Positions 24,545 through 24,706 of a DNA stretch of 32,000 nucleotides are shown here, one piece after another. A model generated the notes under the pieces. It had not been told where the DNA came from. It made no database searches and saw only the letters and a program-made list of their open reading frames with translations. The stretch's first letter is position 1, and every line of letters begins with the position of its first letter. A program made the translations under genes and the position numbers. This DNA is from Xylella taiwanensis (GTDB taxonomy: Bacteria; Pseudomonadota; Gammaproteobacteria; Xanthomonadales; Xanthomonadaceae), in NCBI RefSeq assembly GCF_013177435.1, contig NZ_CP053627.1, positions 2,520,001 through 2,552,000 on the forward strand, written 5' to 3'.

Positions 24545-24706
24545 GCTCCGTCCTCACAGGCGCGTGGATTGAAACCCTTTGTAATATCTTTGTTTTAGAC
24601 CCCAGTAACGTCGCGTCCTCACGGACGCGTGGATTGAAACGTTGGTAGAGTTATGCAGCTCCGGCTGCAGTCACGTCGCACCCTCACGAACACACTCAAT
24701 GAAAGC
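24545..24706 (+). CRISPR. degenerate type I-C mini-array: 3 repeats, 2 spacers of 34 nt
   Basis: R1 (24545-24575) is GCTCCGTCCTCACAGGCGCGTGGATTGAAAC. S1 (24576-24609) is CCTTTGTAATATCTTTGTTTTAGACCCCAGTAAC. R2 (24610-24640) is GTCGCGTCCTCACGGACGCGTGGATTGAAAC. S2 (24641-24674) is GTTGGTAGAGTTATGCAGCTCCGGCTGCAGTCAC. R3 (24675-24706) is GTCGCACCCTCACGAACACACTCAATGAAAGC and is decayed. R1 and R2 match at 26 of 31 positions, and their last 15 nt are identical. The orientation and the ...ATTGAAAC 3' end match I-C repeats transcribed in the cas direction. Confidence 0.85.

Follow-up and report, generated by a model that had tools for sequence, protein, structure and literature searches.

A two-spacer CRISPR remnant and conserved type I-C effector genes in Xylella taiwanensis: evidence for retention of Cascade after decay of the nuclease and adaptation genes

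A type I-C CRISPR-cas locus was analysed in a 32,000-nt stretch of Xylella taiwanensis (contig NZ_CP053627.1, positions 2,520,001 to 2,552,000 of the forward strand; hereafter the window). The locus is positioned between the gene for isocitrate dehydrogenase (IDH) and that for a tail-specific protease (S41 peptidase), and all of its parts lie on the forward strand: intact genes for the effector complex (CRISPR-associated complex for antiviral defense, Cascade), pseudogenes of cas3, cas4 and cas1, a leader, and a mini-array of three repeats and two spacers. To judge from the sequence, this array is the last remnant of a vertically inherited X. taiwanensis type I-C locus. Erosion of the operon is already published: the passages searched of bioRxiv 10.1101/731166 describe the PLS229 locus as a 'vestigial eroded' operon and report X. 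taiwanensis as lacking cas3, and make no mention of the mini-array. The assignment to Xylella is backed by the description in that preprint and by thioredoxin, which clusters with Xylella. New here are the anatomy of the mini-array, the long-term selection on the effector genes after loss of Cas3 and of adaptation, for which Xylella fastidiosa serves as the control, and the conservation of a single repeat.

Three 31-nt direct repeats, in register at a period of 65 nt, and two spacers of 34 nt make up the array, which has the smallest size (three repeats) of a CRISPR array. Repeat R1 (24545-24575; GCTCCGTCCTCACAGGCGCGTGGATTGAAAC) agrees with the Xanthomonas type I-C repeat at 27 of 31 positions, R2 (24610-24640; GTCGCGTCCTCACGGACGCGTGGATTGAAAC) at 30 of 31, and the degenerate terminal repeat R3 (24675-24705; GTCGCACCCTCACGAACACACTCAATGAAAG) at 20 of 31. 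Between them lie spacer S1 (24576-24609; CCTTTGTAATATCTTTGTTTTAGACCCCAGTAAC), which is AT-rich (35% GC) as noted in the initial annotation of this DNA, and spacer S2 (24641-24674; GTTGGTAGAGTTATGCAGCTCCGGCTGCAGTCAC; 56% GC). The Xanthomonas repeat cited in that annotation is genuine: a Xanthomonas translucens array (locus L008) has 90 copies of exactly this unit; the same repeat is in print, including for the type I-C system of Xanthomonas oryzae pv. oryzae (Xoo), where the protospacer-adjacent motif (PAM) is TTC. A scan of both strands of the window found no better non-array match to the repeat consensus than 19/31, so that the three array repeats are not chance occurrences, and no fourth repeat or further decayed repeats downstream of R3.

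R2 is the sole canonical repeat and processing site. It differs from the Xanthomonas repeat only by G16A, which converts a U-G wobble into a U-A pair and leaves the stem perfect, as had been read from the letters; folding returned the canonical 7-bp stem at -12.6 kcal/mol. The features of the type I-C repeat class (7-bp stem, 4-5-nt loop, 11-nt 3' tail ending ATTGAAAC) are all present in R2, which matches the Rfam family CRISPR-DR9 at 27 bits, under the gathering score; R1 retains the tail only, and R3 neither stem nor tail. R1 differs from R2 at positions 2, 3, 4, 14 and 16, all within the first 16 nt, and is the same over the final 15 nt. Its stem is mismatched at the base (C4xC19) and at the top (C9xA14), and its minimum-energy structure is another pairing (-5.2 kcal/mol) in which the canonical hairpin is not formed. 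R3 differs from R2 at 10 positions, of which the 5 within the first 20 nt are each G>A or T>C, has lost the stem and is predicted to be unstructured, leaving it with neither hairpin nor handle; the five differences and intact last 15 nt of R1, and the five differences in the first 20 nt of R3, are as first described. The 3' half of S2 holds a perfect 6-bp GC-rich internal hairpin (TGCAGC-TCCG-GCTGCA, 24654-24669). A spurious-looking 132-aa open reading frame (ORF) at 24653-25051, with no Pfam match, has its ATG overlapping the first base of this hairpin.

Upstream of the array, the effector genes cas5c (19469-20143; 224 aa), cas8c (20140-21951; 603 aa) and cas7 (21948-22814; 288 aa, the best conserved of the three) are intact, with full-length matches to Pfam PF09704, PF09709 (E 2e-185) and PF05107, respectively; cas5c additionally matches the X. 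oryzae Cas5d 3VZI at E 5e-109. An internal reading frame for cas11c (21550-21951) starts at an ATG at cas8c codon 471, preceded by AAGAAGGAA; among 121 sequences this start column holds Val in 79 (presumably GTG) and Met in 42, and the start is kept in X. taiwanensis. The three proteins are 63-83% identical to their Xanthomonas counterparts, and the ratios of nonsynonymous to synonymous substitution rates (dN/dS) against Xanthomonas, 0.07-0.18 overall (cas8c 0.13-0.18; cas7 0.07-0.09), equal the range found between Xanthomonas copies. Divergence at second codon positions of Xanthomonas-invariant sites is 4% in cas7, 8% in cas5c and 11% in cas8c, as against 0.27-0.29 in the cas1 and cas4 pseudogenes, and in Cas7 no more than 8 of 179 conserved columns show a deviation. 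Not one lesion is present in the 3.35 kb of effector genes, whereas the neighbouring pseudogenes carry ~5 per kb. When neutral evolution of cas5-8-7 was simulated at 0.1-0.2 substitutions per site, 11-19 stop codons arose and the probability of none was 2e-5 to 8e-9. GC content at third codon positions (GC3) of the three genes is 0.57-0.61, the same as in the neighbouring housekeeping genes, which argues that the effector genes are long-term residents. Recent horizontal replacement of cas5-8-7 was considered and is ruled out by this host-like GC3 together with derived changes in common with the X. fastidiosa cas5c remnant described below.

The remaining cas genes are dead. An intact cas3 is absent from the locus, where ~60 C-terminal codons are left (18864-19050) with 42-52% amino acid identity by tblastn, one in-frame stop and a frameshift; the rest of the cas3 zone (17650-18860) has no similarity to Xanthomonas Cas3 by tblastn. 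The cas3-cas5 spacer (19061-19468), within which the promoter of cas5c-cas8c-cas7 is presumed to lie, is by alignment and ORF lists a decayed homologue of a small ORF plus crRNA (CRISPR RNA)-like element found in Xanthomonas. Downstream of cas7, the adaptation module cas4-cas1-cas2 has decayed as a whole. The cas4 pseudogene (22838-23345; tblastn 36-45% identity) has 2 stops, a frameshift and internal deletions, and the cas1 pseudogene (23376-24082; ~codons 1-254 of 344; tblastn 32-44% identity) has 2 stops, a frameshift and deletions, with a Pfam Cas1 fragment in the ORF at 23363-23806. By comparison, two Xanthomonas share 91% identity in functional Cas1, and functional copies of cas4 and cas1 are 79-91% identical in amino acids. 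The zone expected to hold cas2 (24083-24372), placed by colinearity with the Xanthomonas loci L003, L005, L007 and L008, has the right length (290 nt) and 34% GC, is unrecognisable, and gave no tblastn match with Xanthomonas Cas proteins. With cas3 and cas4-cas1-cas2 in this state, the X. taiwanensis system is predicted to be unable to cut DNA or to acquire spacers. The leader (24373-24544) is AT-rich, colinear with Xanthomonas leaders and 37-44% identical to them.

Pseudogene and non-coding DNA at 23000-25900 has an extreme strand bias in composition, with a GC skew of up to -0.34, G down to 8-18%, and 33-50% GC, lower than the genes; this bias seems to reveal the strand's neutral mutation spectrum. 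The ORFs of the 1.2-kb junk downstream of the array had no Pfam matches, and this junk includes a perfect tandem duplication of the 14-mer CGCGCACTTTCCAT at 24926-24953.

The origin of the locus was established by comparison with four Xanthomonas loci (L003, L005, L007, L008), all arranged as IDH-cas3-cas5-cas8-cas7-(cas4)-cas1-cas2-leader-array, with rho upstream of IDH in L005 and L007. The same chromosomal arrangement in the four loci shows the X. taiwanensis I-C locus to be orthologous and vertically inherited. The neighbouring genes rhlB, trx, rho and icd and those for the S41, M23 and M28 peptidases are in the same order in X. fastidiosa, a species reported as lacking CRISPR-Cas. Its IDH-S41 interval measures 1.08 kb (L017 15069-16152). 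Of cas5c, 340 nt from the 5' part survive there, lacking the start and carrying 2 stops and 3 indels, and pieces of the cas3 zone are present as well. This remnant at the syntenic site implies that the Xylella ancestor possessed the I-C locus and that X. fastidiosa then lost it by deletion.

This dead copy provides a control for cas5c. Changes were polarised against the four Xanthomonas outgroups at 256 invariant sites. The X. fastidiosa remnant has 53 changes of its own (25, 20 and 8 at codon positions 1, 2 and 3), the X. taiwanensis gene has 7 (1, 2 and 4), and 23 that precede the split (4, 6 and 13) are common to both. Neutral substitutions since the Xylella split amount to ~0.2 per site per lineage, and decay of the cas1 and cas4 pseudogenes is about equal to this or slightly more. 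The 7 versus 53 private changes therefore point to purifying selection on Cascade, as represented by cas5c, long after the death of the nuclease and adaptation genes, and to judge from this comparison cas5c is under strong constraint throughout the time since the X. fastidiosa split. More generally, purifying selection appears to have preserved cas5c, cas8c (with cas11c), cas7 and R2 over a time about equal to that since the other genes died, and the label 'vestigial' is to that extent corrected for the effector genes. The IDH gene was not used as a rate calibrator, being unexpectedly divergent among Xanthomonas; icd of the four loci has 76-90% amino acid identity and dN/dS of up to 0.46, which may reflect exchange or relaxed constraint.

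Constraint on the array itself was assessed against a neutral expectation of ~0.2 changes per site, neighbouring neutral DNA having changed at ~20-35% of sites. R2 has 0-1 changes in 31 nt (binomial P = 0.009 at p = 0.2; 0.0015-0.04 for p = 0.25-0.15), and the 3' 17 nt of R1, which contain the handle, are unaltered (P = 0.02). The decay of R3, with 11/31 positions changed, matches the neutral rate. Neutral DNA on the array strand is depleted in G (8-20%); G makes up 29-32% of R1, R2 and S2 and 12-16% of S1 and R3. In this background the G-rich composition of S2 (11/34) has P ~0.03, and that of S1 (4/34) is junk-like. These figures, drawn from few sites, are moderate evidence for selection on R2 and on the R1 handle, and the G composition hints weakly at S2, and not S1, as the conserved spacer. 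The earlier suggestion that part of the mini-array is maintained is thus upheld by the conservation of R2, its stem-improving change, the intact 3' end of R1 and the selection on Cascade; its second part, that S1 is the sole guide being serviced, is not. A comparison of strains, also proposed there, has no power either way: over 21.8 kb the two available assemblies, which are clonal, differ from the window by one single-nucleotide polymorphism only (at 30182, outside the locus).

Which spacer could be used depends on how the repeats are cut. Cas5c recognises the base of the stem and the nucleotides just 3' of the cut (U22-G23-G24), and after cutting it keeps its place on the 5' handle, which puts it at one end of Cascade (PMC8524198, PMC3973291). 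Because Cas5c cuts at the repeat and holds the 5' handle, release of the S1 handle requires cleavage of R1, and since the R1 stem is mismatched at base and top, this handle, intact in sequence, would not be released canonically. The initial annotation, in which S1 had an intact handle upstream and an intact hairpin downstream, was correct as to the handle sequence and the perfect R2 hairpin, but R1 is not predicted to fold as needed for handle release. R2 supplies S1 with a canonical 3' hairpin and S2 with a canonical 5' handle, and S2, which receives no 3' hairpin from R3, has the internal 6-bp hairpin of its own. A narrower form of the reading favoured below, in which there is exactly one guide, S1, with a 3' hairpin processed at R2 and the handle of R1, and in which S2 is dead, draws on the intact final 15-17 nt of R1, the perfect R2 and the lack of an R3 hairpin for S2. 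We consider it distinctly improbable: exposure of the handle needs the R1 cut; Cas5c, requiring the stem base with its downstream nucleotides and staying on the 5' handle, would let R2 nucleate Cascade on S2 (PMC8524198); and S1 is junk-like in G content, S2 being as G-rich as the conserved repeats. Nor is the wrecked R3 evidence of a single-guide design, as degenerate last repeats also occur in working arrays, among them the 90-copy X. translucens array, whose last repeat is mutated at 4/31 positions. Degraded outer repeats by themselves do not tell which spacer is used. The data fit one surviving processing site that may serve either or both spacers, and the identity of the guide cannot be read from the sequence.

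The reading that we favour, with confidence a little better than even, is that a Cas3-less Cascade with one or more fixed guides from the frozen mini-array has been kept since about the time of nuclease and adaptation gene death, and acts by DNA binding. The array would be transcribed from the leader side, R2 (and perhaps weakly R1) would be recognised and processed by Cas5c, and Cascade would assemble on one or both of the fixed spacers, S2 having the canonical 5' handle and S1 the canonical 3' hairpin. Lacking Cas3, the complex would only bind DNA beside a TTC-type PAM and, if a chromosomal or prophage target exists, would block its transcription or replication. Promoter repression by Cascade and a crRNA-like guide, with no need of Cas3, is known for CreR and CreA guides, and Cascade acts in the same way in type I-F reporter assays lacking Cas3 (PMC10120712; bioRxiv 10.1101/2023.03.10.532045). 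A more specific version is advanced only tentatively, as a possibility that we doubt: that the locus is an endogenous CRISPR interference (CRISPRi)-type device, comprising a Cas3-less and adaptation-less I-C Cascade, one canonical repeat and 1-2 frozen spacers, which has been selected since about the X. fastidiosa split and silences a host or prophage locus. If true, a CRISPRi-type device would have been made by in-place erosion of an immune system and not by mobile-element capture.

Several observations weigh against the favoured reading. With the R1 hairpin lost and R3 destroyed, neither spacer has both canonical flanks; the R2 statistic rests on just 31 nt and an inferred ancestral repeat; the leader is poorly conserved; no convincing array promoter was found, the leader containing no promoter-like match and the nearest lying at 24282-24311; and the cas3-cas5 spacer has no convincing match to a sigma-70 promoter for cas5c. 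Selection on the cas genes, moreover, does not prove that this array supplies the guide. The effector proteins have also changed in ways to be set against it. Evolution of Cas5c and Cas8c, and not of Cas7, is 2-3 times faster along this branch than it is among Xanthomonas, which fits partial relaxation or retooling. Deviations of Cas8c at conserved columns cluster in the Cas11c part (9/57 versus 7/155 in the N-terminal part; Fisher p = 0.015) and include R508C, R510H and R586C, so that several otherwise conserved arginines are lost; the changes may indicate relaxed constraint on R-loop locking or Cas3 recruitment. In Cas5c the triad is Y44-K134-Y135 (codons at 19598-19600 and 19871-19873), that is, H44Y and H135Y at positions where the 119 closest homologues, uniformly H-K-H, have His without exception; H44Y arose after the split from X. 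fastidiosa. The data would in addition accommodate function having been lost very recently, no more than about 0.01-0.02 substitutions per site in the past.

A reading in which the two triad changes inactivate Cas5c was withdrawn. The triad is described as Tyr or His, Lys, and His, with the Lys invariant (PMC8524198). Among 134 family representatives both flanking positions are plastic (Y-K-H, H-K-H, Y-K-F, F-K-Y, L-K-Y), Y-K-Y itself occurring in 2/134, and the Lys is near-invariant; K134 is kept in X. taiwanensis. The Y-K-Y triad therefore predicts neither loss nor retention of RNase activity.

Much of this adverse evidence would be expected if the locus were a pure vestige, with the array mere debris, R2 intact by luck or through repeat-repeat recombination, and Cascade either kept without this array, for a crRNA-independent role or with another guide, or deprived of function very recently. 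The published 'vestigial eroded' description of PLS229 in bioRxiv 10.1101/731166, as far as the passages searched go, says as much, and the damage to R1 and R3, the lack of a detected target or promoter, the faster substitution at conserved Cas5c and Cas11c sites (including the two triad positions), a P for R2 conservation of only ~0.002-0.04 with 31 nt, and the loss of the whole module by X. fastidiosa with no apparent harm all agree with it. It leaves the 7 versus 53 lineage-specific changes in cas5c against the dead X. fastidiosa copy, and the contrast in lesions between the effector genes and the adjacent pseudogenes, without an account. Since the crRNA-like element upstream of cas5c has decayed, the array is also the only crRNA source seen in the locus, and we know of no activity of Cascade without a crRNA. 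On this evidence a pure vestige is regarded as rather unlikely.

Targets of the two spacers were sought in host DNA, represented by the window, and in mobile elements. Neither S1 nor S2 recurs in the window at up to 3 mismatches, as had been noted by eye; the best ungapped matches there (20/34) are at the level of shuffled spacers, and seed matches beside TTC occur at the chance rate. BLAST of S1 and S2 against 50,697 GenBank phage records and 72,556 PLSDB plasmids returned only matches of E ~1 or worse in unrelated hosts. Four patterns tolerating every sixth base, for S1 and S2, gave no real match in IMG/VR, nor did the S1 seed pattern in representative genomes or the S2 seed pattern in one metagenome scan. 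Pattern matches in L015 and L016 were dismissed as chance, having the wrong PAM and an unrelated 3' half, as were others in unrelated Firmicutes and similar organisms; pairing of S1 with the leader (as an inverted repeat) or with its own 5' handle was weak, outside the seed and not significant. The search for targets among mobile elements that the initial annotation had proposed, including partial or seed matches next to TTC, thus yielded nothing above chance in phages, plasmids, IMG/VR or the window, and that all matches to either spacer in every collection searched are at chance level counts against the favoured reading.

The same searches bear on a CreTA-like addiction legacy, in which Cascade with a crRNA-like antitoxin (from the mini-array or another RNA) represses a toxin, so that loss of Cascade is lethal and cas3 and cas1-2-4 are free to decay. 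Addiction of this type predicts the survival of just the Cascade genes, and these are exactly the survivors in X. taiwanensis. Related Xanthomonas I-C loci, furthermore, have between cas3 and cas5 a small hydrophobic ORF together with a crRNA-like unit. In X. taiwanensis, however, that ORF and unit have decayed beyond function, the window contains no TTC-adjacent S1 or S2 seed match near any candidate toxin, and X. fastidiosa deleted Cascade and survived; we regard this explanation as very improbable. In Xanthomonas sp. GPE39 (L005 9028-9290) and X. translucens (L008 8993-9290), the cas3-cas5 gap has a conserved ORF of ~60-76 aa with a hydrophilic N-terminus and one hydrophobic helix, followed by a crRNA-like unit made up of a short hairpin, GTGGATTGAAAC, a ~26-nt pseudo-spacer and a strong GC hairpin. 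The L008 pseudo-spacer matches, at 14/17 nt, a site flanked by TTC that is located at the small ORF's start, on the opposite strand. By its layout the element looks like a CreR/CreTA-type regulatory mini-CRISPR of the type I-C system.

Compared with canonical Xanthomonas I-C systems (X. oryzae pv. oryzae, X. translucens), the X. taiwanensis locus is alike in its IDH-adjacent site, gene order, 31-nt repeat (R2, 30/31) and spacer length (34 nt, as against 33-37 nt), and unlike them in its cas3 and cas4-cas1-cas2 pseudogenes, in having 2 spacers where they have 19 to >100, and in having only one canonical repeat. Its R3 resembles an ordinary degenerate terminal repeat but is changed more heavily (11/31 versus 4/31 in L008), and the leader-proximal R1 has suffered as well, something unusual in an active array. 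CreR and CreA mini-CRISPRs are similar in having 1-2 units, with degenerate repeats on the flanks and a single good handle or hairpin, and in the Cascade-only function that is predicted here. They are, however, ectopic additions to complete systems and have a nearby PAM-flanked partial-match target, whereas the X. taiwanensis array is the remnant of a primary array with full-length 34-nt spacers, and no PAM-flanked partial or seed match to a nearby promoter was found in the 32 kb. CRISPR-associated transposons (CAST; Tn7-like, I-F3 and I-B) likewise combine Cascade genes with short arrays and lack Cas3 and adaptation genes, and type IV systems also have a nuclease-less Cascade-type effector without adaptation genes. 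The X. taiwanensis locus differs from both in having arisen by in-place decay and not by mobile-element recruitment; neither tnsABC/tniQ nor dinG/csf partners on a mobile element were found at the locus, and its neighbours are housekeeping genes. In DevTRS of Myxococcus xanthus, the type I-C proteins Cas8c, Cas7 and Cas5 negatively autoregulate the dev operon without need of Cas3 (PMC8616872); the likeness is in the proteins, the dev locus encoding eight (PMC8616872), and no developmental role is implied for X. taiwanensis. What is known of immune CRISPR effectors turning regulatory comes for the most part from complete systems to which mini-arrays were added (CreR/CreTA) and from the capture of effectors by transposons or plasmids. 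The same end state has seemingly been reached here by differential decay in a genome-reduced plant pathogen, for which the sister species without the module is a natural control, and the role of Cascade once Cas3 is gone can be tested directly in a single organism whose array has two spacers.

Two further features of the window were recorded. The rho gene (12466-14337) has an Asn/Arg-rich low-complexity N-terminal insert, and its ORF runs 59 codons upstream of the called start. At 5000-6000, between coding regions, GC content dips to 40% with a strong negative GC skew.

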